Below, piece by piece: positions 3,076 through 16,717 of a DNA stretch of 24,000 nucleotides. Where the stretch lies: the NCBI RefSeq assembly GCF_004340665.1, contig NZ_SLWO01000005.1, positions 312,614-336,613 of the forward strand. The letters run 5' to 3'. Source of the stretch: Pedobacter psychrotolerans. Its GTDB lineage: Bacteria; Bacteroidota; Bacteroidia; Sphingobacteriales; Sphingobacteriaceae. A program made the translations under genes and the position numbers. The first letter of the stretch is position 1. Every line of letters begins with the position of its first letter. Below the pieces are notes generated by a model, which was given only the letters and a program-made list of their open reading frames with translations, did no database searches and had not been told where the DNA came from.

Positions 3076-3106
3076 TTTGCAGCACAAAGAAACGAATTAT
3101 ATCTTT
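3076..3106 (+). promoter_or_regulatory. Bacteroidota-type promoter of tRNA cassette 1
   Basis: -33 TTTG at 3076-3079, a 19-nt spacer, and -7 TAtcTTTG at 3099-3106. It lies 62 nt upstream of the tRNA. Cassette 2 has the same geometry. Confidence 0.5.
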
Positions 3107-3167
3107 GCATTCCAATTCGGAAACAGAGTTAAGGATTTAATTCAAAGAAAAAACGAGTTGTATATAA

Positions 3168-3243
<76 letters not shown>

Positions 3244-3326
3244 AAATGCAGTCTGAAGTTGTCAGTACCAAGTCCAAAGTCATCAGACTCCAGACTAAGA
3301 ACTAAAGACTCAGGACTTATTTTAAT

Positions 3327-3398
3327 GGCCCGTTCGTCTAGGGGTGAGGACGCCAGATTTTCATTCTGGAAACAGGGGTTCGATTCCCCTACGGGCTA
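3327..3398 (+). tRNA. tRNA-Glu (anticodon TTC), no encoded CCA
   Basis: ggcccgttcgtctaggggtgaggacgccagattTTCattctggaaacaggggttcgattcccctacgggcta. The acceptor stem ggcccgt pairs with acgggct (G1:T72 wobble). The T-arm is ggggttcgattcccc. Confidence 0.9.
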
Positions 3399-3410
3399 CA
3401 CTAATTACAG

Positions 3411-3984: not shown

Positions 3985-4015
3985 TTTGCAAGTATCAAAA
4001 CAATTCATACCTTTG
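3985..4015 (+). promoter_or_regulatory. Bacteroidota-type promoter of tRNA cassette 2
   Basis: -33 TTTG at 3985-3988, a 19-nt spacer, and -7 TAccTTTG at 4008-4015. It lies 37 nt upstream of the tRNA. Confidence 0.5.
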
Positions 4016-4051
4016 CACTCCTTCAAACAAAGAAAATTTGAAGATATAGAG

Positions 4052-4127
<76 letters not shown>

Positions 4128-4210
4128 AAAGGTAGTCTAAAGTCGTCAGTACCAAGTCCAAAGTCATCAGACTTCAGACTAAGAACTAAAGACTCAGGAC
4201 TTATTTTAAT

Positions 4211-4282
4211 GGCCCGTTCGTCTAGGGGTGAGGACGCCAGATTTTCATTCTGGAAACAGGGGTTCGATTCCCCTACGGGCTA
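4211..4282 (+). tRNA. tRNA-Glu (anticodon TTC), second identical copy
   Basis: Identical 72-nt sequence to 3327-3398. Confidence 0.9.
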
Positions 4283-4286
4283 CTGG

Positions 4287-4332
4287 AAAGCGCTGAACAA
4301 CAGTTAATTACGACTGAATCAGCGCTTTTTTT
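4287..4332 (+). terminator. Intrinsic terminator candidate after tRNA cassette 2
   Basis: A 10-bp stem, aaagcgctga (4287-4296) with tcagcgcttt (4319-4328), then a T7 tract to 4332. Confidence 0.55.
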
Positions 4333-4523
4333 ATACTATCGATCTTTATTTTACATCAACATTTATTGTACTAAGCTTAAGAACTCCTATCCACACATCA
4401 ATGGATAATGATCTATTTAGCGCAGACAGGTTTATTTCTGAATCCTTTCGTTTATTCAATCATTAATTATGAAAGTTGTTCAGGCTTATCTAACTTATTC
4501 CTCGTCTTCATAATATTCTGAGT

Positions 4524-4586
4524 TCATTTCGGGATTAGGTGTGTATTTCGGTGAAAGTGACCCCTCTGTTTCGGGCCAAACTGGCC
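4524..4586. repeat. Left cluster of about 21-nt TTTCG-N-AAA-N-TG-N-CC units (transposase-binding-site-like)
   Basis: Units are catttcgggattaggtgtg (degenerate), tatttcggtgaaagtgaccc and tctgtttcgggccaaactggcc. They are inverted relative to the cluster at 4885-4973. Confidence 0.5.
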
Positions 4587-4884
4587 ACCAAATTGATTAC
4601 CGGATGATGCACATCTAAGTTCCTTTCCCTCTGAACAAATATACACTTCGGATCCAAATCCATCTTACTGCCGGATTTATCCTCAATTCAGATCTTTCTA
4701 GCGATCAAAATCCATTCGCAGGTACTGGAACGCGTAAAAAAACGCCATATCCCCTTCAAAACAGCGAAGTGACCGTAGTCCATCCCTAATAGTAGATATG
4801 CTCCCAGGAGCCTTTATTTTATGCAGAAATTGAAAAATTATTCTCGAAAGCCAGTTGCGAAAAAAGCTGATCGAAAGATCAGAA

Positions 4885-4973
4885 CGGCCAGTTTGCCCCG
4901 AAACAGGTGGTCACTTTAAAGCGAAATGGGATGACAGTTTAAATGCGGAACGGCTGGCCATTTTTGCCAAAAT
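4885..4973. repeat. Right cluster of four about 21-24-nt units, inverted relative to 4524-4586
   Basis: Units are ggccagtttgccccgaaacag, gtggtcactttaaagcgaaatg, ggatgacagtttaaatgcggaacg and gctggccatttttgccaaaatg. The innermost unit is the reverse complement of 4566-4586 at 20 of 21 positions. Confidence 0.5.
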
Positions 4974-5124
4974 GCCCAGATTATGCTCATAAAACATAAT
5001 AAAATCGATTAAAGGGCTTAAAAAAGACAAAAAATGGATAAAAAGAAACAGCTCTTCAATCCGCTTATCAGCCCAGCATTAATAAATAGTAGCCAATTCT
5101 GGGATGTCTTTCCATGTCGAAATA

Positions 5125-5155
5125 TTTGAGAGATTTAAACCTCCTAATAAATTTG
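5125..5155 (+). promoter_or_regulatory. Promoter candidate for the NTPase-RES gene pair
   Basis: -33 TTTG at 5125-5128, a 19-nt spacer, and -7 TAaaTTTG at 5148-5155. The geometry matches the two tRNA promoters. It lies about 110 nt upstream of the ATG at 5265. Confidence 0.35.
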
Positions 5156-5264
5156 ACATTAATGAGCAATTAATCTTTCCCCTTGTATTAAAGTAACATT
5201 TGAAGGTTTTCTAAACATTTGAAAAATCCTTAGCTTAGGAGAATCTATTACTTAACACTCCATA

Positions 5265-8200
5265 ATGCCTAATACAAGAGAAATCATCCTTTCCGCATTG
5301 GAATGGTTAACAAAAAAACTAACGGTTCAATCAAGTGCATCCGGAAAAGTCGCTCTAAAGACCACTGATCTTCTAGAGGACCTTACCCCTAGGGTTGACC
5401 CTGTAAGCACTAAAAACTATTGCGATGCAATTCATTGGGCATTGCAAAGGCCCAACGTGTTAAATATTGCGCTTTCCGGACCGTATGGATCAGGCAAGAG
5501 TACTATTTTAAGTTCTTTGCAGGCAAATGATAAGGGCCATAAATTTTTGTATATCTCCCTTGCCTCTTTTAAGGATACTTCGCTGGTTCAGGATAGCTCC
5601 ATTATCGGGCCCCGCTTACCGGGGGAGACTAGAAGGGAATTTATGGAAGAGCAGCAACTGATCCATGAGATTCATAAGCAGATCGAGTTAAGTATTTTGC
5701 AGCAAATGCTATACAAAGTGTCAGGGAGTGAACTACCTCAATCCAGATTCAAAAGGATTATTAGCCTCTCGGGTAAGATGATGTGGGCACAGGCAGTATA
5801 CATACTTTTCTTTTTAATGAGCGCGGTGTTTCTGTTCAACAAGACATTTAGGGACGATCTCTACCATTGGAAACACATGTCGTTCATCTTGGAGGTGCTA
5901 TTACTGGTGGCGACGATGATCATCTTTTCAGCTGGGGTAATTTATATTGGCAGAGCAATTATCAATTTTCTATATACATCTAAGTTTAGCAAGATTAATC
6001 TCACCAGCGGCGAGATCGAGATCTCCAAGGATATTGATGGTTCTGTATTGAATAAGTACCTAGATGAGATTATTTACTTTTTTGAAAAGACAAAGTATGA
6101 TGTAGTGATCATTGAGGATCTGGACCGCTTTAACGATCCAGAAATCTTTACTAAGCTCCGGGAGATCAATATGATGATCAACAATTCTGAGCAAATCCAT
6201 CCGATGAGGGTCAAGTTTATCTATGCCATCAAGGATGACATCTTCCAGGACAAGAATCGAACAAAATTCTTCGATTTTATTATTCCTGTCATTCCACATT
6301 TAACAGCTGCGAACTCGCTAGATGTATTGCTGCCTAAGATGGCCAAACTAAACCTTAATCCACCATTTAACCAAAAATTCCTATATGACATCATGCTCTT
6401 TGTGGATGATATGAGGATACTGATCAATACCTATAATGAATTTGTACTTTATCAGCACAATCTAAAGCATCCTGAAAATCAATTAGTCCCTGAAAAACTA
6501 TTTGGTATAATGGTCTATAAGAATCTTTTTCCCAATGACTTCGCCAAGCTCCATATTCGCGAGGGTGATATTCCTAATACCTTTGATCGAAAGGCATCTT
6601 ACATTATAGAGCAATCCAAAATACTTGATGCTGAAATGCTAGAGATCGAGGAGCAATTGGAGAAGAATGGGCTTGAAAAACTTCAAAATCTAGCAGAGCT
6701 TCGCAAGGTGTTCATCATGGCATTAATCAGTACCTTTCCAACGGCACTGGCAATAGAGGTATCAGGCAGGAAAACATTTACTGAACTTCAACAAGAAACC
6801 GTATTCGATGAGCTTAGGCTAATCCCAAATATTCACTATTATACTAGGACATTAAACGATACCCAAACTCCATCAAAGATAAGCTTTGCTGAGGTTGAGC
6901 GAAAAGCAGATGCCGGTGATTATGTACAGCGTCGACAGATAATCATTTCCTCCGCTCAGGATAATCAAGGGAAGCTGAGAAATAGGCGCGATGAGATTGC
7001 CCAAATGTTAAAGCGGATCAACAGTGCTCCCTTAAAATCCTTGTTTAAGGATAACAAAAAAGCGCATGAGTTCTTTCCAACATTAGTTAAAAAGCCAATC
7101 CTACGCTATCTGATCAGTGGTGGGTATATCGATGAGATGTATGAAATCTATATTTCCCATTTTTACAATAAAAGTTTAACTGCAACCGATCTTGTATTTC
7201 TCAAGAAACTAAAAAACCTCGAGAAATCTAATTATGCCTATAGTATTCAGAAACCAGTCGAGCTTTTACACCGAATGGCCGACGAGGATTTTTTGCTAGA
7301 GGAAGCGCTCAACTTTAAATTGCTTGATTTTCTAATCCAGAATAAAGCTACCTACTCCATCCCCTATAATAACATTTTTAAATTGTTGGCAGATGATAGC
7401 ACGACTAGCTTGGAATTTACTAGGGGCTATCTCTCTATAACAAAAAATATTACTGGTTTCATTGAAAAGATTACCACAGCATATCCTAAGTTTTGGTGGA
7501 CCGTAAGAAGCCTAACTAAGTATGGCGTTGATCAACAATTGTTAATCATGACTACTATGATCAAACACTGTGATATGAACACCATCCACGCACAAAATAC
7601 AGACGAATCAATTAAGCATTATTTGCAGGGAGATACAACAGACTTTATTCTTCAGTTTCCAAACAAAAAAGACCATCATAGGGTAATGAATACAGTCAGA
7701 AACCTCAATGTACATTTCCAACATATGACTTCTGCTGCATTCTCTTCTCCACTATTTAAGAGTATTTATGAACAAAAGTTTTTTACTGTCTCATACGATA
7801 TGATTAAACTAATGTTCAGATTTTGTGTTGGGAAGAACCCTATTGCTATGGAGGAGTTTGAGAATGCAAACCTCACTACAATTAAAAAGTATAATTGCCA
7901 GCCACTTTTTGAACATATTGAATACCATTTGGACTTATATGTTTCCTTGGTTTCTCTAGAGATGGAGAATAACAAGAATGAATCTGTAGAAATCATTAAA
8001 ATGATGCTTTCTAAGCTTAAAAATGAAGAGAATAGGCTCAAAGTAATTGAGCATCAAAAAACGACATTACCCTCTTTCAAGGATATAGATGTTTCGCTCT
8101 GGTCAACACTAGTAGAAAACAATAAAATTCTTTCAAAATGGAAGAATATAGAGCAATATTACGTCGAAAAAGGAGGACTGGATCAGGAAATGATAATGTA

Positions 8201-8969
8201 CATCAATAAAACCAAAACCTCTATGCTTTTATGGGTGGACGACATTGACATCACTATTAATTCTAAAGCCCACGAATTACTTCTTTCAATAATAAATGAA
8301 CCAAAAATAACGGATACAGCTTTCACCATGTTAATTGGGAAAATAAGATATAAATTTGAAGCAGAAGATATATTCAGTTCAGCGCCAGAGGCCCACCTAC
8401 GAATGCTAATTGATAATGGCAACATTGTGCTAAACAGTTTCAATTTTAATGCATTATCGACTTTTGAAAATGATCTAAAAATAGCATTGGTCAAGAAGAA
8501 TTTCAGTAGCTTTTCTAAACAGTCCGAAATATTTTCACTAGTTAGTCAGGAATGGGTAAGATTAATCCAGTTAAAGCCAACTAATACTCAAAAGGAAAAA
8601 ATCATATCGATGATTCCCATTTCAAGTATAACCGGATACTTTCTAGCTAACCAACTAACCAAGTTATTATTAGCAAAGAATGGGAAGCGTACCGAATTTG
8701 ATTTTATTGTCAAGTTATTCGGTTTCGGCAATAATCCTATGGATAAAGTTAAATTATTGAACCTTTATGGAGAAAATTATTCAAAAGAACAATTAAGAGA
8801 ACTTTTACTAGCAATGGGCGGGAAATACGAAAAAATTAGTCCGGGTTCATTCCCCAGGCTAGATGCCAATCCAGACCATAAAAGGATGCTTTCTCTATTA
8901 TATGACAAAAAACTTGTGAAAGAATTTCCATTAAGAAACAACAAATTTGTTGTATTACCTGCCAAATAA
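5265..8969 (+). CDS. YobI-like / KAP-family P-loop NTPase with two transmembrane helices inserted in the NTPase domain and a C-terminal region of about 940 aa with no recognisable domain
   Basis: 1234 aa. Walker A is GPYGSGKST (aa 72-80, nt 5478-5504). Hydrophobic helices are at about aa 172-191 (MWAQAVYILFFLMSAVFLF) and 205-229 (MSFILEVLLLVATMIIFSAGVIYIG). The Walker B-like motif YDVVIIEDLDRF (aa 278-289) is followed by EIFTKLREIN. This order is the KAP NTPase signature. The size and layout match what I recall of the B. subtilis YobI family. Confidence 0.8.
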   Translation: MPNTREIILSALEWLTKKLTVQSSASGKVALKTTDLLEDLTPRVDPVSTKNYCDAIHWALQRPNVLNIALSGPYGSGKSTILSSLQANDKGHKFLYISLASFKDTSLVQDSSIIGPRLPGETRREFMEEQQLIHEIHKQIELSILQQMLYKVSGSELPQSRFKRIISLSGKMMWAQAVYILFFLMSAVFLFNKTFRDDLYHWKHMSFILEVLLLVATMIIFSAGVIYIGRAIINFLYTSKFSKINLTSGEIEISKDIDGSVLNKYLDEIIYFFEKTKYDVVIIEDLDRFNDPEIFTKLREINMMINNSEQIHPMRVKFIYAIKDDIFQDKNRTKFFDFIIPVIPHLTAANSLDVLLPKMAKLNLNPPFNQKFLYDIMLFVDDMRILINTYNEFVLYQHNLKHPENQLVPEKLFGIMVYKNLFPNDFAKLHIREGDIPNTFDRKASYIIEQSKILDAEMLEIEEQLEKNGLEKLQNLAELRKVFIMALISTFPTALAIEVSGRKTFTELQQETVFDELRLIPNIHYYTRTLNDTQTPSKISFAEVERKADAGDYVQRRQIIISSAQDNQGKLRNRRDEIAQMLKRINSAPLKSLFKDNKKAHEFFPTLVKKPILRYLISGGYIDEMYEIYISHFYNKSLTATDLVFLKKLKNLEKSNYAYSIQKPVELLHRMADEDFLLEEALNFKLLDFLIQNKATYSIPYNNIFKLLADDSTTSLEFTRGYLSITKNITGFIEKITTAYPKFWWTVRSLTKYGVDQQLLIMTTMIKHCDMNTIHAQNTDESIKHYLQGDTTDFILQFPNKKDHHRVMNTVRNLNVHFQHMTSAAFSSPLFKSIYEQKFFTVSYDMIKLMFRFCVGKNPIAMEEFENANLTTIKKYNCQPLFEHIEYHLDLYVSLVSLEMENNKNESVEIIKMMLSKLKNEENRLKVIEHQKTTLPSFKDIDVSLWSTLVENNKILSKWKNIEQYYVEKGGLDQEMIMYINKTKTSMLLWVDDIDITINSKAHELLLSIINEPKITDTAFTMLIGKIRYKFEAEDIFSSAPEAHLRMLIDNGNIVLNSFNFNALSTFENDLKIALVKKNFSSFSKQSEIFSLVSQEWVRLIQLKPTNTQKEKIISMIPISSITGYFLANQLTKLLLAKNGKRTEFDFIVKLFGFGNNPMDKVKLLNLYGENYSKEQLRELLLAMGGKYEKISPGSFPRLDANPDHKRMLSLLYDKKLVKEFPLRNNKFVVLPAK

Positions 8970-8995
8970 TTAATGAATAACTAATAAGAGAAATC

Positions 8996-10456
8996 ATGAT
9001 TGAGGGTAACCATGTTTGCCATAAATGTATCAGCGATGAGTTTTTATCCACTGAGGTAAAAAAAATGGGAAAGTCTAGATTGTGTAGCTATTGCCAACAT
9101 AAACGCAAAGGTTATACATTAGAGGAAGTTTCGGATCGGGTTGAAAAGGCGTTTTTCGAACATTATGAACGGACGCCAGAAGAACCGTCAGAATACCAGT
9201 ATTGGATGCAGCATGCCGATAAGGAGTCGAACTATCATTGGTATCGCGAGGGCGAGCTAGTGGTAGATATCCTTGAAAATGACTTAGGTTTTGAAGCAAA
9301 GCTTGCCAATGATATTAGTGAGAATTTAAGAGACCGATACGCTAATTACGGATCAGATGAAATGTATGAGGAGACCGAATTTGGTTCCGAGAGTCATTAC
9401 GAATCAGCTGGCATAAGTGATAGGGAATGGCAAGTACAGCAGGATGCATTTGATCGGTCATTACGAGCAGAAGCGCGGTATTTTAATGAGCCGTTAAGGC
9501 AGTATCTTCAACAGATTTTTGAGGGAATTGACGAATTAAAGACCTACGGGCGAAAAACTGTTATTACGGAGGCTGGGCCTGGTCGGGAAATTACAGGACT
9601 GTTTCGTGCAAGGGTATTTCAAAATGAAAATCAATTATTGGAAGCATTAAGTAAGCCTGATCAGCACCTAGGATCACCCCCCTCAAGGTTTGCTATGGGT
9701 GGAAGAATGAACGCAAGGGGCATCTCTGTATTTTACGGAGCATCTAATCCTAACACAGCCCTAGCAGAGGTCCGTCCACCCGTTGGCAGTTTGGTTGCAG
9801 TAGCAAGCTTTATATTACTCAGACCAGTTAGGCTACTGAATTTACCTATACTGGCTGAGCACCATGCCTCGGGCAGTGTCTTTGACCCCAATTATTTGGG
9901 AAGGAAACAAAAAAGTCTTTTTTTAAGGAACCTCAGCCAAAAGCTTATTGTTCCAGTGATGCCTGATCAAGAGGATTTTGATTACCTGCCTACTCAGGCA
10001 TTGGCCGATTTTCTCTCCTCCCACCCAATACTAAGCCTCGACGGCATTGTTTTTCCATCTGTACAAACTGAGGGAAAAGGTGGCAATATAGTTTTATTCC
10101 ATAAGGCAGCAAGAATTTCAGCTATAGAACTCCAAAATGGTGATTCCATTAGGGCTTCAGCAAGAGATTATGATGAGGATGACGAATATGAATCATACAG
10201 CGTACTTGAGGTTAAGGGCAACAAAATTCCTGTGCCAAAGCCGATGACCCACCTGAGGGACAATACTGGTCAGTACCATTTCGATAAAAAAATTGAACCT
10301 ATTCAGGATGATCGAATCGAAACACTAAGTGTAAATTATAAATCAATGCAGGTACATCGGATTAAGGGGATAGAAATCCTCAAAGAATCGTTTGATGTGA
10401 GTCATCGGGTGGCAAAACCTGTAGTCATCAAAGAGTCTAATGTGAGAGATTTTTAA
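8996..10456 (+). CDS. RES-domain protein with an N-terminal Cys4 zinc-ribbon domain (resembles the HEPN/RES-associated NTD1) and an acidic C-terminal extension
   Basis: 486 aa. CHKC (aa 8-11) and CSYC (aa 30-33) are present. The RES signature is GGRMNARGISVFYGASNPNTALAEVRPP (R237, E258) plus DGIVFPSVQ (S355). It starts 27 nt after the NTPase stop. Confidence 0.85.
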   Translation: MIEGNHVCHKCISDEFLSTEVKKMGKSRLCSYCQHKRKGYTLEEVSDRVEKAFFEHYERTPEEPSEYQYWMQHADKESNYHWYREGELVVDILENDLGFEAKLANDISENLRDRYANYGSDEMYEETEFGSESHYESAGISDREWQVQQDAFDRSLRAEARYFNEPLRQYLQQIFEGIDELKTYGRKTVITEAGPGREITGLFRARVFQNENQLLEALSKPDQHLGSPPSRFAMGGRMNARGISVFYGASNPNTALAEVRPPVGSLVAVASFILLRPVRLLNLPILAEHHASGSVFDPNYLGRKQKSLFLRNLSQKLIVPVMPDQEDFDYLPTQALADFLSSHPILSLDGIVFPSVQTEGKGGNIVLFHKAARISAIELQNGDSIRASARDYDEDDEYESYSVLEVKGNKIPVPKPMTHLRDNTGQYHFDKKIEPIQDDRIETLSVNYKSMQVHRIKGIEILKESFDVSHRVAKPVVIKESNVRDF

Positions 10457-10856
10457 GCTTACATTTAAGACTTGGTAATTTTGATTTTGAACATTCAGTA
10501 TAGCCGTTGATTTTTTTAAATAATCTTCCGTAGTCATATATGGAAGCTGACACCTAGATCAAGTCTAATAGATTTATTAGGATTATCGACAATAACTGCT
10601 ATTTATGTTTATCAAAACAGTCCACTGTATATAGAAATCATAGATTTTGATAAACCTCATAAACATTCAAAACAAGGAAATTAAATTCTAGTTGATAAAA
10701 TAAGTATTAATTCATTTTTGTTTTATAAATTTCTTACTTCTAATAAAGAACCTATTCATAATAGTAGTGACACTCGTTTCCCCTATTACATCCCCCACTC
10801 GTTATTATCTAGCAGGTTCATGCGAGAAAGCGATAGGAAATAAGAATTTAACTAGC

Positions 10857-10871
10857 CCCCTACGGGCTACA
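10857..10871 (+). repeat. Isolated copy of the 3-prime end of tRNA-Glu (att-like direct repeat)
   Basis: cccctacgggctaca is identical to 3386-3400 (tRNA-Glu copy 1 T-arm/acceptor 3-prime half plus 2 nt). It is identical to 4270-4283 over 14 nt. The following bases (ttaatcaa) also resemble the flank of copy 1 (ctaattaca). Confidence 0.6.
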
Positions 10872-10886
10872 TTAATCAATGTCAAA

Positions 10887-10918
10887 ACCTGCAAATCAAA
10901 CATTTGCAGGTTTTTTTT
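10887..10918 (+). terminator. Strong intrinsic terminator
   Basis: A perfect 10-bp stem, acctgcaaat (10887-10896) with atttgcaggt (10902-10911), a 5-nt loop and a T8 tract to 10918. Confidence 0.75.
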
Positions 10919-11142: not shown

Positions 11143-11997
11143 CTATTGGGTGATAAGTGCCATCACTTTTAAAGCGGCCTTGTCGCCGTTAAAAAGATCC
11201 AGGTCTACCTGACCGGCCACGCCCGTTACCGCCCCGCCTCCAGAATATTGCCAGATGCGATAGTCCTGCCATGAACCAAATAATCCCGGCGGGTTAGATT
11301 GATAAGATGGCACCCATAACGGGTAATTTGGAAAAGAAACGCCGTTAAAATATTCAGCCCAGAACGATTTTGCGGTATAGATCATCGGTGTGCGACCAGT
11401 TGCAGATGAAAGTTGGCTGAGGCAGTCCTGAATCAGCTGCACGCAGGCGTTCTTATTGTTCAGGATGTACTGGTTCATGGCCTGGCTCTGCCCATCATTA
11501 GATCCGACCTGCCATTCGATATCCAGCACCGGCGGTAAAGTGCCCGGGACAGTGAAATCAACGCCGCAGGATAAAAAGTTCTGCATCTGCGTGGCGGCAG
11601 AATCCTGAAAGGTTAAAAAATGATAGGCACCAAATATCAGTCCCTGCTGCCTGATGGTTGCCATATACTGCGCCAGTGTAGGGTCTTTAAAGCCTGCACC
11701 CTGACTGGCTTTGCAATAAATAAACTGGATATGCGGCGATAACTGACTCCAGTTGATGTTGCCGGTAAAATGGCTGATGTCCATGCCTTGCGGCACCAGC
11801 TCATCCAGCACGGCCCAGGTGGCCGGCCCGGCAACGCCGTCGGCACTTAACTGATGGTCCTTTTGAAATTGTGTAACGGCGGCCTGGGTACCCGGGCCAA
11901 AGTTACCATCGATAGAGAGTGAATAATGGAGAAACGAGAGTGCTCTTTGCAGCATAAAAACCTCGCTGCCTGATGAGCCGATTGAAAGTGTTTGCAT
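11143..11997 (-). CDS. Peptidoglycan-binding domain plus GH25 muramidase (endolysin-like lysozyme), no obvious signal peptide
   Basis: The N-terminus GSSGSEVFMLQRALSFLHYSLSIDGNFGPGTQAAVTQFQKDHQLSADGVAGPATWAVL fits the PG_binding_1 pattern. GMDISHFTGNINWSQL...FIYCKASQGAGFKDPTLAQYMATIRQQGLIFGAYHF...VLDIEW fits the GH25 pattern. The N-terminus MQTLSIGSSGSE is not hydrophobic. Confidence 0.85.
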   Translation of the reverse strand: MQTLSIGSSGSEVFMLQRALSFLHYSLSIDGNFGPGTQAAVTQFQKDHQLSADGVAGPATWAVLDELVPQGMDISHFTGNINWSQLSPHIQFIYCKASQGAGFKDPTLAQYMATIRQQGLIFGAYHFLTFQDSAATQMQNFLSCGVDFTVPGTLPPVLDIEWQVGSNDGQSQAMNQYILNNKNACVQLIQDCLSQLSSATGRTPMIYTAKSFWAEYFNGVSFPNYPLWVPSYQSNPPGLFGSWQDYRIWQYSGGGAVTGVAGQVDLDLFNGDKAALKVMALITQ

Positions 11998-12050: not shown

Positions 12051-12827
12051 CTATCCGTAAAATGCATTACCTCCGCTGCTTGTATGAACGGGAGGAGTTT
12101 GTACAGCCGCGGGGGGCTGATATGGATGGATTGCAGGTGCTGGCGCGGCCGCGGGTGTGTAATTAGGAACGCCGGTTTTTGGTGTGCCCTCAGCCTCGTT
12201 TTCTCTTGATCGGATAGCCACAAATATGGCACTGCTAATGCCCATTAACATAAGTAAAGTATCGCTTAACTCTGGCAAACCACAGCCTGTTTTAATTTCT
12301 CCTATTTTGTAAAGGTAAATACTTACGCCTACCATGGTCCATACAACGTGCTGAAACCGGTGAATGCTGATGCCTAAATCATCTGATAATATATCCGTAA
12401 AGAAGCCTAGCGAGGGCGTATTCTGATGTCTTGGTCGCTGATCTTTTATTTCGCGTTTATCGATGATTTTGGACGTGACCGCAGTACATGAAAAAATCCC
12501 CAATAGCACCAGTGCCGTTTGATTTATTTCAGTTTCGGAACAATCGCCCTTAAACAGTGAAAGGTACAGATAGGAACAGGATATGACCACAGTCCACAAT
12601 CCCAACTGTACCTTTTCTAAACTGTAAGGAGACGTAATATTTTTCGGTGACTTACTCAAGTTAATGCTATCAGGTCTGATAAATCCGTCATCATTTTCAA
12701 CATCTTCGCGAAGCAATAATGTATATTTCCCAAGTAAGACAAACGAAAGGATAATGGTTAATATACCGGCTATGGCCAGCAATGATTCCGAATTGGCAAA
12801 AGTTACGAATAGCATTTTCAGATACAT
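12051..12827 (-). CDS. Polytopic membrane protein (about 5 TM helices) with a Pro/Ala-rich C-terminal tail
   Basis: Hydrophobic segments include LLAIAGILTIILSFVLLG, LGLWTVVISCSYLYLSLF, ALVLLGIFSCTAVTS, VVWTMVGVSIYLY and LLMLMGISSAIFVAI. The tail reads TPAAAPAPAIHPYQPPAAVQTPPV. No family recognised. Confidence 0.6.
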   Translation of the reverse strand: MYLKMLFVTFANSESLLAIAGILTIILSFVLLGKYTLLLREDVENDDGFIRPDSINLSKSPKNITSPYSLEKVQLGLWTVVISCSYLYLSLFKGDCSETEINQTALVLLGIFSCTAVTSKIIDKREIKDQRPRHQNTPSLGFFTDILSDDLGISIHRFQHVVWTMVGVSIYLYKIGEIKTGCGLPELSDTLLMLMGISSAIFVAIRSRENEAEGTPKTGVPNYTPAAAPAPAIHPYQPPAAVQTPPVHTSSGGNAFYG

Positions 12828-12914
12828 TAAATTTGCTTATATAATTGTTTTATTGATGATAGTTGGCTTATGGTTTAAAAGAATTTCCAGATGAACTTTT
12901 ATCGATGTGACATA

Positions 12915-13622
12915 TTACTGCCCATTAGCCACTATATTACTGAGCAGGTCAACATGTGCCTGATTAAGATCGCTTAAGGGAGTGCAAATATTTCCAAAAT
13001 CAGCGTAGCGCTGATTAAATCTGAACTGCAAAGTTGGCTGCACGCCTGATGGTTGTGGAAATGTTTCAATACAAACGAAGTTATTATTCAGGAGTGGCAC
13101 TTCTATCCACCAATGTGTTTCATTGGGCCCATAAGGTATTCCGTCTTCCCCTGCATCGTCATAATGCATCACCATTATATAATTAGCTGACTGGCCTGCT
13201 TCAATATACCCCAGTGCGGTGCTGATATTGTTACATACCCAAGTCATGGCCTCTTCCCGGAATTGTCTCCAGATTGTCCAGTCGCCCTGATTATGTGGAG
13301 CATATGGGTCAAACTCCATAATATACTGATGCCCCTGTATTAGGGTTTGCAGAATTTGCTCTTGCGACCAATAAGAAGCCGGATCAGGATTGATACCCAA
13401 TAATATGGTGTCAAAAGCATTCGCAGGCCTGTGAATAATGGTTGGCGTGTTTTGCTGGTTATAGTTAATGTTATCTAATAAACCAAAAAGTGCCCATTTC
13501 CAACAGGAAACGTTGTCTGGCGTAAACCCATCTGGCAAATTAGCGAGTTGTATAGTAGCCCCGGGGCTTGCCTGTACATAATTATTTAAGGCATTAATAA
13601 TAGCCTGAGTTAGTTGTGGCAT
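12915..13622 (-). CDS. Hypothetical protein (235 aa), Trp-rich, no family recognised
   Basis: A long ORF co-directional with its neighbours and without low-complexity sequence. No motif I can name. Confidence 0.55.
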   Translation of the reverse strand: MPQLTQAIINALNNYVQASPGATIQLANLPDGFTPDNVSCWKWALFGLLDNINYNQQNTPTIIHRPANAFDTILLGINPDPASYWSQEQILQTLIQGHQYIMEFDPYAPHNQGDWTIWRQFREEAMTWVCNNISTALGYIEAGQSANYIMVMHYDDAGEDGIPYGPNETHWWIEVPLLNNNFVCIETFPQPSGVQPTLQFRFNQRYADFGNICTPLSDLNQAHVDLLSNIVANGQ

Positions 13623-13747
13623 AAGGTTATCTTTTAAGGCATTGTATAAATTTGCTGCATGTGCCCCACTACTTTTATTTATTTTTATAATAGTGGTACC
13701 TGTTGTTTAATTTCAACATGTTGTAAAAAGACTAGTCAAAATGATTA

Positions 13748-14422
13748 TCATTTAAACAGATTACTTGGCCCTTGCGGAGAGCCGAACATTGACGTAGCAT
13801 ACTGAAAAGTTGGTGTAGGCAAAGGGTTTGGTGTACCAAAAATATTCATTGGAAGTGTTGGCAAGGTGTTTTGTAGAAATCCGTCAACACTTGTACTTTC
13901 ATTACGATATGGAAATGGATAAACCAAACAGGTAGCACCCCATTTTTGCCATAAAATTTCAAACCCTTTCTCTTTAATAGCCTTTTCAACATACTCAGGA
14001 GAAATACATATGCCAACGGCAATTCTGCGGCCTAGCACACCACATCCTTTCAGTTTTTCAACATCACGGCTTAGGCCAGGACTAAAATTTTGCCGGTTTT
14101 CCAGGGATTCACACTTTAATTCTACCAATAATATTTCCAAAGTACCGTTGTCAAAAATCATATCTGCTTTTTGACCTAACTTTGCAAAACCCGGACTTAG
14201 CATCGTTTTATTATTATTCTGTAACAAACTGGCAGTTACGTTGCCTGATACCGCTTCGCGTAAAAAGCCTCTAGGCTGGAATTCCATATTCTTTATATAT
14301 AGAGATAAATCGGTTTGAGCCCAAGGTTCCCAACCCCCTCTAAGCTCAGCGAGTGATGTGAAATCTTTGCCTCTTGCGTCACACCATTTGGTGACAATAT
14401 CATAAAAGGTGTAATAATTCAT
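13748..14422 (-). CDS. Hypothetical protein (224 aa) with a possible PD-(D/E)xK nuclease-like motif
   Basis: KADMIFDNGTLEILLVELKCES has the D...ExK spacing typical of the restriction-endonuclease fold. This is pattern-level only. The C-terminus is Pro/Gly-rich. Confidence 0.5.
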   Translation of the reverse strand: MNYYTFYDIVTKWCDARGKDFTSLAELRGGWEPWAQTDLSLYIKNMEFQPRGFLREAVSGNVTASLLQNNNKTMLSPGFAKLGQKADMIFDNGTLEILLVELKCESLENRQNFSPGLSRDVEKLKGCGVLGRRIAVGICISPEYVEKAIKEKGFEILWQKWGATCLVYPFPYRNESTSVDGFLQNTLPTLPMNIFGTPNPLPTPTFQYATSMFGSPQGPSNLFK

Positions 14423-14433
14423 AGTTGTCTTGT

Positions 14434-14658
14434 TTAATGTTGGCTTCCGAATGGCGACTTGCCGCCAGGCCCTCCCGGGGTCAGTACAGTTGTTTTGGTC
14501 AGTACCATTGGCGAAACTGTTATGTGATCAAATTTATTAGCATAGTCATCGTACCAAACACACTTTACAATGCCCTGAGCAACGTTTGAAACAGTCATTA
14601 CTGGCCCGCCTGAAATGAGTTTGACCACATCGCCCTGATTAAATATTGTTTGTGCCAT
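14434..14658 (-). CDS. DUF2158 / YodC-like small protein
   Basis: FNQGDVVKLISGGPVMTVSNVAQGIVKCVWYDDY matches the GDxVxLxSGGPxMTV...C.WYD pattern of the E. coli YodC family. Confidence 0.65.
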   Translation of the reverse strand: MAQTIFNQGDVVKLISGGPVMTVSNVAQGIVKCVWYDDYANKFDHITVSPMVLTKTTVLTPGGPGGKSPFGSQH

Positions 14659-14691
14659 TTCTTTGCTTTTTAGTAATTTTCAGCTGATTTA

Positions 14692-15102
14692 TTATTGCGC
14701 ATTTGTAGTGCTGCCTGTGTTATTCAATGCACTTTCCGCATTTTTTACACTTTGCTGAGCAGCCAGCATGGCCGCATCAACATTGGTGTTTACCGTGTTT
14801 ATGGCTTGCTGAATAGGGTTGATTACGGGTGGTGCCACCGGTGTAACAGCTGCTGCGGCTTGAGGCTGTGCCTGGTCATTAACCATTTGCAAACTACTTG
14901 CGGCGAGTGCCTGGAAACTACTATCAACCTGCGATTGCATCGCTTGTATAGCCTGTTGTTGAATGGTGGCAATCTGCGATTTAAGATCGCTGATTTGTTG
15001 CTGCATGACCTGATGAGGCGACATTGATGGTGCCGCGGCTGGCTGATTATCGGGCACAACTGGTGTACCCCCTATATTAGGAGAATCGCTTTGCTGTTGC
15101 AT
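14692..15102 (-). CDS. Gln/Ala-rich, probably coiled-coil protein (136 aa from ATG 15102; the ORF-track start at 15168 would add 22 aa)
   Basis: MQQQSDSPNIGG...QQQISDLKSQIATIQQQAIQAMQSQVDSSFQALAASSLQMVNDQAQPQAAAA. The heptad-like Q/A-rich composition is co-directional with the reb array. The upstream extension MVKGGGTINRCCPHSNHLKNIT looks non-native. Confidence 0.5.
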   Translation of the reverse strand: MQQQSDSPNIGGTPVVPDNQPAAAPSMSPHQVMQQQISDLKSQIATIQQQAIQAMQSQVDSSFQALAASSLQMVNDQAQPQAAAAVTPVAPPVINPIQQAINTVNTNVDAAMLAAQQSVKNAESALNNTGSTTNAQ

Positions 15103-15201
15103 AGTAATGTTTTTTAAGTGATTGGAATGAGGACAGCACCTGTTTATGGTGCCGCCCCCTTTAACCATTTCCGTTCCTTTTGGATCCGGTGTAAAGACGG
15201 C

Positions 15202-15471
15202 TTAAGAGCCGAAAATTTGTTTGGTACCCACGGCATCAGATGCCGTATCGATTGAATACAACATGGTTACACCCATAGTAGTAGCGGCCTGTGCGGTAAT
15301 GTTACTTTGTTGTTGACTGCTGGTGGCGTTGTGTGCTGCATTAGCCAATGCCTGTGCGGTGGCCTGGTACAGGTTGCCCATTGCAATTGCAGGAGCATCA
15401 CCCAATACTTTGGTGTTTGCCTGGGTTACAGAGTCGGTGATCTGATCGTTTACTGAAGTTGGAAAAGCCAT
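15202..15471 (-). CDS. rebB: RebB-family R-body protein, tandem copy A (89 aa)
   Basis: MAFPTSVNDQITDSVTQANTKVLGDAPAIAMGNLYQATAQALANAAHNATSSQQQSNITAQAATT matches my recollection of the RebB (Pfam Killing trait) consensus VNSQITDsVTQ.N.kVLGeAPA.AmG.lYQ...A...A..NAv..QQ. Confidence 0.85.
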   Translation of the reverse strand: MAFPTSVNDQITDSVTQANTKVLGDAPAIAMGNLYQATAQALANAAHNATSSQQQSNITAQAATTMGVTMLYSIDTASDAVGTKQIFGS

Positions 15472-15507
15472 GATAAAGTTGTTTTAAATGATTAATTCGT
15501 TTTGGTT

Positions 15508-15795
15508 TTATTGCCCAAGTACTTTACCCGGAGCATAGATTTTTTTGGTACCCACGGCATCAGAAGCGGTGTCGATAGAATACAGGGTGGTTACGCCCAT
15601 GGTGGTTGCCGCCTGCGCCGTAATATTACTTTGCTGCTGACTGCTGGTGGCATTGTGTGCCGCATTGGCCAAAGCCTGCGAGGTAGCCTGGAAAAAATTG
15701 CCCATCGCGATAGCTGCCGCATCACCCAATACTTTGGTGTTGGCCTGGGTCACCGAATCGGTGATCTGACTGTTTACTGCTGTTGGAAAAGCCAT
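15508..15795 (-). CDS. rebB: RebB-family R-body protein, tandem copy B (95 aa)
   Basis: Same family signature. The C-terminus is extended (KKIYAPGKVLGQ). Confidence 0.85.
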   Translation of the reverse strand: MAFPTAVNSQITDSVTQANTKVLGDAAAIAMGNFFQATSQALANAAHNATSSQQQSNITAQAATTMGVTTLYSIDTASDAVGTKKIYAPGKVLGQ

Positions 15796-15818
15796 AACTG
15801 TTTAGATTTAAGGTTAAA

Positions 15819-16085
15819 TTATTGATAAATCATATGGGTGCCCACGGCATCTGATGAAGTATCGATCGAATAAAGGGTGGTCACTGCCGAGGTGGTAGAA
15901 GCCTGCGAGGTCATATTGGTTTGCTGCTGACTGCTGGTAGCATTATGCGCCGCATTGGATAATGCCTGTGAGGTAGCCATAAAGAGATTGCCCATTGCCA
16001 TGGCCGGCGCATCGCCCAGTACCTTGGTGTTGACTTCGGATACCGAATCGGTGATCTGACTGTTTACTGCTGTTGGAAAAGCCAT
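15819..16085 (-). CDS. rebB: RebB-family R-body protein, tandem copy C (88 aa)
   Basis: Same family signature, subtype SxVN / MATSQALSN. Confidence 0.85.
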   Translation of the reverse strand: MAFPTAVNSQITDSVSEVNTKVLGDAPAMAMGNLFMATSQALSNAAHNATSSQQQTNMTSQASTTSAVTTLYSIDTSSDAVGTHMIYQ

Positions 16086-16115
16086 AACGGTTTAGTTTTA
16101 AGGTTAAAAACTGGA

Positions 16116-16382
16116 TTACTGATAAATTTTACGGGTACCTACCGCATCAGATGAAGTATCTATCGAATACAGGGTGGTAATGCCCGATGTGGTGGCCGCC
16201 TGTGCCGTAATGTTGGTTTGCTGCTGACTGCTGGTGGCATTGTGTGCCGCATTGGATAATGCCTGCGAGGTAGCCATAAAAAGGTTACCCATTGCCATTG
16301 CCGGCGAATCACCCAAAACCTTGGTGTTAACTTGCGATACAGAGTCGGTGATCTGGTCGTTTACTGCTGTTGGAAAAGCCAT
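16116..16382 (-). CDS. rebB: RebB-family R-body protein, tandem copy D (88 aa)
   Basis: Same family signature, subtype SxVN / MATSQALSN. Confidence 0.85.
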   Translation of the reverse strand: MAFPTAVNDQITDSVSQVNTKVLGDSPAMAMGNLFMATSQALSNAAHNATSSQQQTNITAQAATTSGITTLYSIDTSSDAVGTRKIYQ

Positions 16383-16422
16383 TTTTGTTTGAATTTAAGT
16401 GTGAATTTATGGTTGATTATTT

Positions 16423-16689
16423 TTAAGCGAATATCTGTTTCGTACCTACCGCATCAGAAGCGGTGTCTATTGAATACAAAGTAGTTACACCCATGGTGGT
16501 TGCCGCCTGCGCCGTAATATTACTTTGCTGCTGACTGGTTGTGGCATTATGTGCTGCGTTTGCCAGTGCCTGTGCGGTTGCCTGAAAAAGATTGGCCATT
16601 GCGCTCGCCGGAGCAACGCCTAATACCTGTGTGTTTGCCTGGGTCACCGAATCGGTGATCTGACTGTTTACTGCTGTTGGAAAAGCCAT
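16423..16689 (-). CDS. rebB: RebB-family R-body protein, tandem copy E (88 aa)
   Basis: Same family signature, subtype TQAN / QATAQALAN. Confidence 0.85.
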   Translation of the reverse strand: MAFPTAVNSQITDSVTQANTQVLGVAPASAMANLFQATAQALANAAHNATTSQQQSNITAQAATTMGVTTLYSIDTASDAVGTKQIFA

Positions 16690-16717
16690 AATTGTTGTTT
16701 TTTATTGTTATTAATGA

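Follow-up and report, generated by a model that had tools for sequence, protein, structure and literature searches.

Tandem homologues of the single-protein anti-phage systems Tmn and aRES in a tRNA-Glu islet of Pedobacter psychrotolerans

Introduction

Two adjacent genes of Pedobacter psychrotolerans, encoding an NTPase and a protein with a RES domain, raise the question of whether they constitute one defence system or two. The combination of an NTPase with an effector is common among defence systems. An earlier note on this DNA had proposed that the pair forms an uncatalogued coupled module, in which the RES protein is regulated by the NTPase, acting as a sensor or switch. To answer the question, we analysed the stretch of 24,000 nucleotides that contains the two genes (hereafter, the window) and the neighbourhoods of their homologues.

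Tmn was reportedly the subject of an earlier publication, dated 2020. It is now described as a self-contained protein without a conserved operon partner (Wu et al. 2026, bioRxiv 10.64898/2026.03.01.708804), and the family has been shown experimentally to defend alone. A match to the PADLOC Tmn model was the operational definition in that 2026 Tmn census (bioRxiv 10.64898/2026.03.01.708804). aRES was described in a January 2026 preprint as a stand-alone RES NAD+ phosphorylase defence, which defends alone in E. coli and has no conserved operon partner (Osterman et al. 2026, bioRxiv 10.64898/2026.01.28.702374).

Results

The two genes lie in an islet at the 3' end of tRNA-Glu

The earlier note had placed the two open reading frames correctly (Table 1). 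They do stand in close tandem, although the gap was 26 nt and not 27 nt as it had been given. The last 14 nt of tRNA-Glu (CCCCTACGGGCTAC) recurred exactly on the right side of the genes, where 0 recurrences were expected, and the 6 nt 3' of this right repeat were similar to the 6 nt 3' of the first tRNA-Glu copy. The adjoining tRNA-Glu is copy 2 of a tandem tRNA-Met/tRNA-Glu pair, in a region with a 239-nt duplication (3161-3399 and 4045-4283) whose copies are 97% identical. The two genes are carried by an islet of approximately 6.6 kb (approximately 4284-10870), which is integrated at the tRNA-Glu 3' end and bounded by the 14-nt repeat. If these boundaries are right, the empty site would consist of tRNA-Glu followed directly by ATTAATCAATGTC...

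Table 1. Positions of the islet features in the window
Feature	Positions	Strand	Remarks
tRNA-Glu (UUC)	4211..4283	+	ARAGORN; Rfam tRNA, 63 bits
Left 14-nt direct repeat, attL-like	4270..4283	+	CCCCTACGGGCTAC, the tRNA-Glu 3' end
MITE-like element	4545..4927	.	42-nt imperfect inverted repeats
Bacteroidetes-type promoter candidate	5125..5155	+	TTTG-N19-TAAATTTG; 110 nt 5' of the Tmn ATG
Tmn homologue	5265..8969	+	1234 aa; locus in Pedobacter psychrotolerans
Intergenic spacer	8970..8995	+	26 nt; no terminator, no promoter match
aRES homologue	8996..10456	+	486 aa; directly 3' of the Tmn homologue
Right 14-nt direct repeat, attR-like	10857..10870	+	exact copy of the tRNA-Glu 3' end
Intrinsic terminator-like hairpin	10884..10914	+	13-bp stem, then T run

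Between tRNA-Glu and the first gene (4284-5264, 981 bp), we found no ORF of at least 60 aa, with the exception of a 64-aa ORF that overlaps tRNA-Glu and reaches into the segment as far as 4307. The MITE-like element in this segment, whose inverted repeats are 74% complementary and 299 nt apart, is possibly a mobile-element remnant. Among all compared loci, its inverted repeat was matched only in the other assembly of the same strain. Megablast of the locus against plasmids gave no match.

The repeat at tRNA-Glu bears out the earlier description of the segment as island-like and tRNA-adjacent. In contrast, AT richness, which had also been claimed, was not distinctive; the GC content was 37.4% in the islet, 39.6% in the window and 36-37% in the housekeeping genes der and era. 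The GC contents of the Tmn and aRES genes were 36.7% and 42.2% (GC3 0.40 vs 0.37). Because this difference sits in codon positions 1 and 2, GC content was dropped as an argument for separate origins of the two genes.

The two genes are probably transcribed together

A sigma-70 promoter scan (18 sites vs 23 expected) was uninformative because the genome is of the Bacteroidetes, and it was replaced by a search of the whole window for the Bacteroidetes-type pattern TTTG-N19-TAnnTTTG. The search returned 6 sites vs 1.3 expected, a number that was reached in 0 of 100 shuffles, and two sites other than the one listed in Table 1 stand 5' of tRNA operons. The listed site was the sole match upstream of Tmn or aRES, which agrees with the earlier claim of a single promoter candidate before both genes. 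No match to the pattern indicated a promoter of its own 5' of aRES, and the first terminator 3' of aRES is the hairpin just outside the right repeat. Judged from the sequence, Tmn and aRES are probably co-transcribed from one promoter. A single transcript appears very likely because the gap is short, only one promoter was found and no terminator was found between the genes; a spacer of this kind would imply read-through transcription into aRES.

The first gene encodes a predicted divergent Tmn

The first protein matched Pfam YobI-ATPase PF20693 (E 2e-116, residues 52-436), as expected from its earlier identification as a KAP/YobI NTPase. Further, it matched the PADLOC Tmn model PDLC02220 (E 5e-80, 268 bits; residues 17-1028 of the protein and 6-1055 of the 1273 positions of the profile), which is a match at the level of the profile. 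As in Tmn, the YobI/KAP NTPase core has a Walker A motif (GPYGSGKS, 72-79) and a Walker B motif (VVIIEDLDRF, 280-289), between which two hydrophobic, predicted transmembrane helices are inserted (172-195 and 202-237; Kyte-Doolittle windows >1.6). GPYGSGKS, with K78, and EDLDR (284-288) were invariant in 20 homologues.

The Tmn hallmarks that we considered were variable alpha-helical (solenoid-like) C-terminal arms, a total length of approximately 1200-1270 aa and decameric assembly. The first protein fits Tmn in its length of approximately 1230 aa and has a long C-terminal region that would correspond to the variable arms. This region diverges from canonical Tmn, as would be expected of such arms, and the alignment to the PADLOC profile leaves out the last approximately 200 residues. 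Compared with the enterobacterial Tmn of pM63-1, a canonical Tmn that scored 2002 bits on the PADLOC model, the first protein was 31% identical (E 5e-61), over residues 38-666 only. A further difference is that gene 1 is followed at 26 nt by another defence gene. Its family shares with Tmn a stand-alone occurrence among variable defence-island neighbours, and the host phylum Bacteroidota is already known for Tmn (7% of occurrences). We therefore assigned gene 1 as a predicted divergent Tmn, a member of a catalogued single-protein defence. Because the C-terminal arms are the specificity determinant of Tmn, its phage trigger probably differs from that of enterobacterial Tmn.

The second gene encodes a predicted aRES

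The second protein matched Pfam RES PF08808 (E 1e-18, 68 bits with a cut-off of 23, residues 233-377), and the RES domain reported earlier was thus present. The match to PF18870 (HEPN/RES-NTD1) was under the Pfam cut-off for this sequence (E 1.4e-3, 19.4 bits, cut-off 27.4). PF18870 and RES were both matched by 24 of the 24 aligned family members (best PF18870 E 2e-10). An N-terminal CxxC...CxxC zinc-ribbon and HEPN/RES-NTD1 region is followed by RES (approximately 200-377) and a beta-rich C-terminal region. The AlphaFold model (pLDDT 81) likewise has extra regions besides RES, at 1 to approximately 180 and approximately 384-473.

The protein was collinear from residue 1 with two validated aRES proteins, those of E. 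coli UC5 (35% identity, E 1e-71) and K. pneumoniae (33% identity), and the CxxC...CxxC motif was included in this N-terminal alignment. The six residues mutated in the aRES study, R182, R184, R215, Y225, E236 and S334 of UC5, correspond to R204, R206, R237, Y247, E258 and S355, and in the family each of these was either invariant or conserved to at least 90%. Accordingly, the residues singled out in the earlier note were well chosen, in the NTPase (K78) as in the RES protein, in which, among 24 homologues, R237 and E258 were invariant and S355 was at least 90% conserved.

The preprint defined aRES as proteins of 300-600 aa with RES and PF18870 at an HHsearch probability >80%. Gene 2 encodes 486 aa with PF08808, and PF18870 was present at the level of the family, as detected with Pfam profiles. 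The aRES list of the preprint includes Pedobacter and Mucilaginibacter members (bioRxiv 10.64898/2026.01.28.702374), and Mucilaginibacter polytrichastri, whose protein belongs to the family of gene 2, stands on it. In its conserved residues, the absence of an antitoxin and its defence-island setting, gene 2 resembles aRES, and we assigned it as a predicted member of this stand-alone RES NAD+ phosphorylase defence. It differs from the tested enterobacterial aRES in its low identity (33-35%) and belongs to a sub-branch in which the nearest relatives are 47-49% identical. Further, in this locus it lacks a separate promoter and probably shares a transcript with Tmn. Searches of PDB with the Tmn and aRES family profiles gave nothing significant, and NCBIfam gave no useful match for either protein.

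No same-strand ORF of at least 60 aa adjoined aRES and the small ORFs had no Pfam match, consistent with the earlier statement that no antitoxin-like ORF is adjacent to the RES gene. No small neighbour of aRES homologues was conserved across 78 loci, and Rfam detected no RNA within the islet. Gene 2 shares with type II RES toxins (Xre-RES, MbcTA, ParST and NatRT) the RES catalytic domain, with its NAD+ phosphorolysis or ADP-ribosylation chemistry. However, those toxins are short, have a single domain and are encoded beside the gene of a small antitoxin (Xre-HTH, MbcA/COG5642 or ParS), whereas gene 2 encodes additional domains and stands without an antitoxin.

The pair is not conserved

Tmn was found beside aRES homologues in 0 of 80 genome loci, and RES beside Tmn homologues in 0 of 80 metagenome loci, of which 52 extended 1.5 kb or more downstream. 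The pair was also absent from 38 viral loci, and it was absent around the five closest RES and the three closest Tmn homologues examined. It could not be traced in close relatives because the databases searched contained no homologue more than 49% identical to gene 2 or more than 34% identical to gene 1. Neither gene had another conserved neighbour: none was conserved beside aRES in 78 loci, and the neighbours of its homologues were varied defence genes; none was conserved beside Tmn in the 80 metagenome loci, and the three closest Tmn homologues had differing neighbours. The neighbours of the closest homologues of both genes included CBASS, Abi_alpha, nSTAND3, Mrr, a TIR protein and PIN-TPR.

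On the Klebsiella plasmid pM63-1, Tmn and aRES are 2.3 kb apart, with two opposite-strand genes between them. Of 210 plasmids that have DNA in common with one Tmn-aRES region, only one carried both cassettes; in enterobacterial plasmids, the Tmn block and the aRES block assort independently, and a breakpoint lies between the two. The adjacency on pM63-1 is a single joining of two cassettes that circulate independently. As a second case of Tmn-aRES proximity, it could hint at a non-random association.

Thus, the co-occurrence that the earlier note had put forward as a check on its proposal was not observed in the RES, Tmn or viral loci. The note had named a lack of co-occurrence and prior cataloguing as findings that would count against it, and both were made gene by gene: the pair was absent from the RES, Tmn and viral loci examined, and each gene belongs to a named family.

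Discussion

We consider it very likely that Tmn and aRES, which stand in tandem in the islet and are probably transcribed together, are anti-phage systems of one protein each and independent of each other. The identities, architecture and conserved catalytic residues of the two proteins, the absence of any partner conserved with them and the limits of the islet are the results on which this reading builds, and the biochemical activities are carried over from the two papers. Judged by its homology with the E. coli protein that has been characterised, Tmn would be a membrane-embedded YobI-family NTPase, the variable cytosolic C-terminal arms of which would recognise a phage protein. Once triggered, it would burn ATP and export Mg2+, leading to collapse of the cytoplasm (plasmolysis) and stalling of the phage. 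aRES would be a RES enzyme that acts alone; it would stay silent in uninfected cells and, upon infection, convert NAD+ by phosphorolysis to nicotinamide and ADPR-1''-phosphate, which would arrest the cell and starve the phage. From its sequence alone, aRES is predicted to be held inactive within its own polypeptide, probably via the N-terminal HEPN/RES-NTD1 region; it would need no antitoxin because the inactive state is kept within the same polypeptide. The earlier suggestions that both are conflict or defence genes, and that the RES protein would be an NAD+-targeting abortive-type effector without an antitoxin gene, agree with this assignment to the Tmn and aRES families. Some observations weigh against our reading. 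The 26-nt gap, one promoter and no terminator are also what a true two-gene system looks like, and the PF18870 score of this one sequence is below the Pfam cut-off. Further, this pair could not be followed into close relatives, and the second proximity, on pM63-1, may point to a non-random association.

It is possible but unlikely that self-sufficient Tmn and aRES reinforce each other facultatively in the Pedobacter operon. Doubtful to the same degree is the more detailed form of this idea, in which Tmn-driven ATP collapse, Mg2+ export and phosphate release provide a signal or potentiator that switches on aRES. Such synergy would parallel the awakening of Gabija and Septu I by Tmn; as in the synergy of Tmn with Gabija, Septu I or PrrC, Tmn here adjoins a further effector system of the abortive type, one that is otherwise silent. 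Probable co-transcription and the second, independent proximity on pM63-1 are in its favour. Further, the aRES preprint names no trigger, and inorganic phosphate is a co-substrate of RES (bioRxiv 10.64898/2026.01.28.702374); that phosphate rises through ATP hydrolysis is our own inference. However, unlike the known partners of Tmn, aRES has no known ATP-sensing component, nor does it have a recognisable nucleotide-sensing domain, and it protects E. coli alone. Nor was the pairing enriched in the loci examined (0 in 160 loci and in 38 viral loci), and both cassettes were on just one of the 210 related plasmids. If synergy were true, aRES would gain a metabolic-state trigger, and the model of Tmn as an upstream alarm would widen from nucleases to NAD+ depletion.

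It is very improbable that the two genes form an obligate abortive-infection system, with the membrane NTPase as the sensor of infection that controls the RES effector. The shared strand, the short gap and single promoter, a RES protein without an antitoxin and the frequency of NTPase-plus-effector logic in defence are consistent with it. In contrast, the pair was conserved in neither direction, the cassettes are separable on plasmids, and both families are experimentally self-contained, with the full phenotype of either gene alone already shown for homologues. The proposal that the NTPase regulates the RES protein in a coupled module was thus not supported, and we read the position of aRES 26 nt after Tmn as islet packing.

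It is scarcely credible that the islet is stabilised by a toxin-antitoxin or addiction module, with the RES protein as toxin and an unannotated small ORF, an RNA or Tmn as antitoxin. The classical RES proteins MbcT, ParT, Xre-RES and NatT are type II toxins, but the protein of 486 aa has extra N- and C-terminal domains that short RES toxins lack. Next to the gene there was no small ORF with a Pfam match, the islet contained no Rfam RNA, and no small neighbour was conserved across 78 loci. Moreover, E. coli tolerates homologues on their own as long as it is not infected (bioRxiv 10.64898/2026.01.28.702374).

We concluded therefore that the locus is not a new two-gene system, because each gene belongs to a described single-gene family; two known single-gene defences stand side by side, and the claim of an uncatalogued pairing does not hold. 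The correct annotation is Tmn plus aRES, rather than a novel system of NTPase and RES. Because aRES is not yet among the systems recognised by PADLOC 2.0 (2023), automated tools would leave the RES gene as an orphan effector beside an NTPase, which invites its misreading as part of a coupled system. The divergent Bacteroidota representatives, 31-35% identical to the tested proteins, could serve for probing trigger specificity. Further, as a natural and probably co-transcribed pair, Tmn and aRES of P. psychrotolerans would be a handy test bed for whether the ATP collapse caused by Tmn awakens NAD+-depleting defences.

Gene 1 and Gene 2 Are Predicted Members of the Tmn and aRES Families

The two plus-strand ORFs were accurately observed in the earlier note. 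They are separated by a 26-nt spacer, and a second, independent assembly of P. psychrotolerans contains both at full length and in the same order. The 486-aa product of gene 2 matched an NCBI protein of P. psychrotolerans with 100% identity, in line with the origin of the window. The public NCBI annotation of gene 1 ("putative membrane protein YobI", 1017 aa) starts at M218. Translation from there would drop residues 1-217 (window 5265-5915), among them the Walker A motif and TM helix 1; both the window and the independent assembly contain the complete, uninterrupted 1234-aa ORF. Thus, the 1017-aa model is probably a start-codon miscall.

Gene 1 matched the Pfam YobI-ATPase family (E = 2e-116) and the PADLOC Tmn model (E = 5e-80, residues 17-1028). 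Walker A (GPYGSGKS, 72-79) and Walker B (EDLDR, 284-288) were invariant (n = 20 homologues), and between them lie two hydrophobic helices (172-195 and 202-237), which is the hallmark of KAP/YobI proteins. Gene 1 was 31% identical over residues 38-666 (E = 5e-61) to Tmn of the Klebsiella plasmid pM63-1, which matched the PADLOC Tmn model end to end (2002 bits). The C-terminal part of gene 1 has diverged, in agreement with the prediction from the Tmn family description. Judged by sequence, gene 1 is a divergent new member of the already named Tmn family. Tmn is a decameric, self-contained sensor-effector, the cytosolic arms of which bind a phage protein, T2 RIIB; it then raises ATP turnover and exports Mg2+, leading to plasmolysis (Wu et al., bioRxiv 10.64898/2026.03.01.708804). 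The same study found no conserved operon architecture in the family, 7% of whose occurrences are in Bacteroidota.

Gene 2 matched the Pfam RES domain (E = 1e-18) and, weakly, HEPN/RES-NTD1 (E = 1.4e-3); both were matched by 24 of 24 aligned homologues. The family is large (>1,900 matches, mostly about 490 aa), and its invariant residues include C8, C11, C30, C33, R204, R206, R237, Y247 and E258, the four cysteines forming a predicted zinc ribbon. The domain calls of the earlier note (YobI and RES) were correct, as was its choice of K78 in the gene 1 Walker A and of R237, E258 and S355 in gene 2. Osterman et al. (bioRxiv 10.64898/2026.01.28.702374) apply the name aRES to stand-alone proteins, 300-600 aa long, that combine RES with PF18870 and are encoded in defence islands; in their experiments three enterobacterial members protected E. 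coli by converting NAD+ to nicotinamide and ADPR-1''-phosphate. Gene 2 aligned from residue 1 with aRES of E. coli UC5 (35% identity, E = 1e-71) and K. pneumoniae (33%, E = 8e-65), and the six residues mutated by Osterman et al. mapped to identical residues. Mucilaginibacter polytrichastri, one of our gene 2 homologue loci (L043), appears in their gene list, as do Pedobacter species. The AlphaFold model (pLDDT 81, pTM 0.72) has the RES core between an N-terminal alpha/beta and a C-terminal beta region, and a PDB fold search with it returned no significant match. Gene 2 is thus assigned, on alignment, as a divergent new member of the already named aRES family.

The Genes Lie in a Small tRNA-Linked Islet

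An exact second copy of the final 14 nt of tRNA-Glu lies beyond gene 2 (0 expected), and the bases after this repeat resemble those after tRNA-Glu copy 1. Such a pattern is characteristic of elements inserted into tRNA genes, and it delimits an islet of about 6.6 kb. The locus was thus island-like and tRNA-adjacent, as the earlier note had it, but not notably AT-rich compared with host core genes. No integrase is encoded in the islet, and in its first 981 bp (4284-5264) the sole ORF of at least 60 aa is one overlapping tRNA-Glu. The inverted repeats at its left end look like a MITE-like element or IS remnant; among the other loci fetched, they were present only in the second assembly of this strain.

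Co-transcription of the two genes is likely, since no terminator lies between them and the first strong one follows gene 2. Their GC3 values were similar; composition therefore speaks neither for nor against separate origins.

Features of the window around the Tmn and aRES homologues
Feature	Position	Strand	Remarks
der and era	left flank		housekeeping GTPase genes
Promoter matches	3076-3107, 3985-4015		Bacteroidetes-type, one before each tRNA pair copy
tRNA-Met(CAT)/tRNA-Glu(TTC) pair	3161-3399 and 4045-4283		duplicated in tandem 884 nt apart, 97% identical across 239 nt
Inverted repeats	4545-4586 / 4886-4927		imperfect, 42 nt, 74% complementary, 299 nt apart
Promoter candidate	5125-5155		Bacteroidetes-type, sole such site before either gene
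Gene 1 (predicted Tmn)	5265-8969	+	1234 aa
Gene 2 (predicted aRES)	8996-10456	+	486 aa
14-nt repeat of tRNA-Glu	10857-10870		
Terminator	10884-10914		first strong one
GH25 lysozyme	11143-11997		with PG-binding domain, flanks RebB array
Gene block	12051-18803		contains RebB array
Six tandem RebB paralogues	15202-16942	-	74-95 aa, PF11747, E = 1e-25 to 1e-31
AraC regulator	19094-19942		flanks RebB array

Separately, the RebB ("killing trait", R-body) paralogues, in a region of higher GC (45-49%), are also flanked by several genes without a Pfam match. The region thus resembles a locus for R-bodies (refractile bodies), here in a member of the genus Pedobacter.

No Conserved Pairing of Tmn and aRES in the Loci Examined

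The earlier note proposed that the NTPase is coupled to the RES effector, which was unsupported by co-occurrence in 80 + 80 + 38 loci. Gene 2 relatives were encoded in 366 genome stretches; in the best 80 of the 366, tblastn detected no Tmn within 10-kb flanks, and all-against-all clustering of neighbouring ORFs revealed no conserved neighbour (largest family in at most 6 of 78 loci). RES was absent from 80 metagenome loci of Tmn relatives, 52 of which have at least 1.5 kb downstream, and these also lacked a conserved neighbour; the commonest families occurred in just 4-5 loci, two of them, by eye, resembling type I restriction-modification subunits. The two genes were never together in 15 aRES and 23 Tmn loci on viral contigs. 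The nearest aRES relatives (47-49% identity) adjoin Abi_alpha/DUF6236/nSTAND3, resolvase and PDDEXK genes, or a CBASS operon, and the nearest Tmn relatives (32-34%) adjoin Mrr, a CAP12-type TIR protein, PIN-TPR-GreABC or resolvase. A tRNA or tmRNA gene lies within the fetched 10-kb flanks of four Sphingobacteriaceae aRES loci (L001, L003, L007, L041), as would be expected if aRES commonly resides in tRNA-linked islands.

Plasmids of enterobacteria frequently carry members of either family, with matches in 797 and 635 records. The K. pneumoniae IncF plasmid pM63-1 (NZ_CP063864.1, 8670-16310) carries a canonical Tmn and an aRES 2.3 kb apart, with two genes on the opposite strand in between, of which one bears the annotation RelB/DinJ antitoxin (326 aa). 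When this 7.6-kb region was searched by megablast, just 1 of 210 matching plasmids carried both cassettes. The Tmn block occurred without aRES in about eight Klebsiella plasmids; the aRES block lacked Tmn in each of the other 31 listed plasmids that matched aRES (from E. coli, Shigella, Salmonella and Enterobacter), and the same probably holds for most of 170 further records. Because the blocks recur separately and part abruptly at query position about 6066-6070, the cassettes are shuffled independently in defence hotspots. Their separate circulation and the sharp junction point to a site where defence cargo is often recombined.

Two Independent Defences as the Best-Supported Reading

The earlier note was right about the defence context, as both genes match named anti-phage families. 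We consider it highly probable that two independent single-protein defences are packed into one small islet, each gene acting as described for its own family. We propose that aRES would be held inactive in cis until infection and would therefore need no antitoxin. Facultative synergy is an unlikely alternative. In its favour, other defences are awakened when Tmn makes ATP collapse (Wu et al., bioRxiv 10.64898/2026.03.01.708804), and the aRES study names no trigger. Obligate coupling of Tmn and aRES is very improbable, and a role of gene 2 as the toxin of a toxin-antitoxin module slightly more so, since the conservation data and the published stand-alone activity contradict both.

The finding is ordinary in kind, because both genes are divergent new representatives of families that already have names. 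In the PADLOC check proposed earlier, gene 1 matched a model and gene 2 did not. PADLOC-DB 2.0.0 gave no match for the window aRES (8996-10453) or for a near-canonical enterobacterial aRES (L205, i.e., pM63-1, 14811-16307). PADLOC 2.0 has no model for the aRES family, which is why gene 2 seems an uncatalogued effector, and aRES genes stay unannotated in pipelines built on this release. The remaining interest lies in this annotation gap and in the possible synergy between Tmn and aRES.
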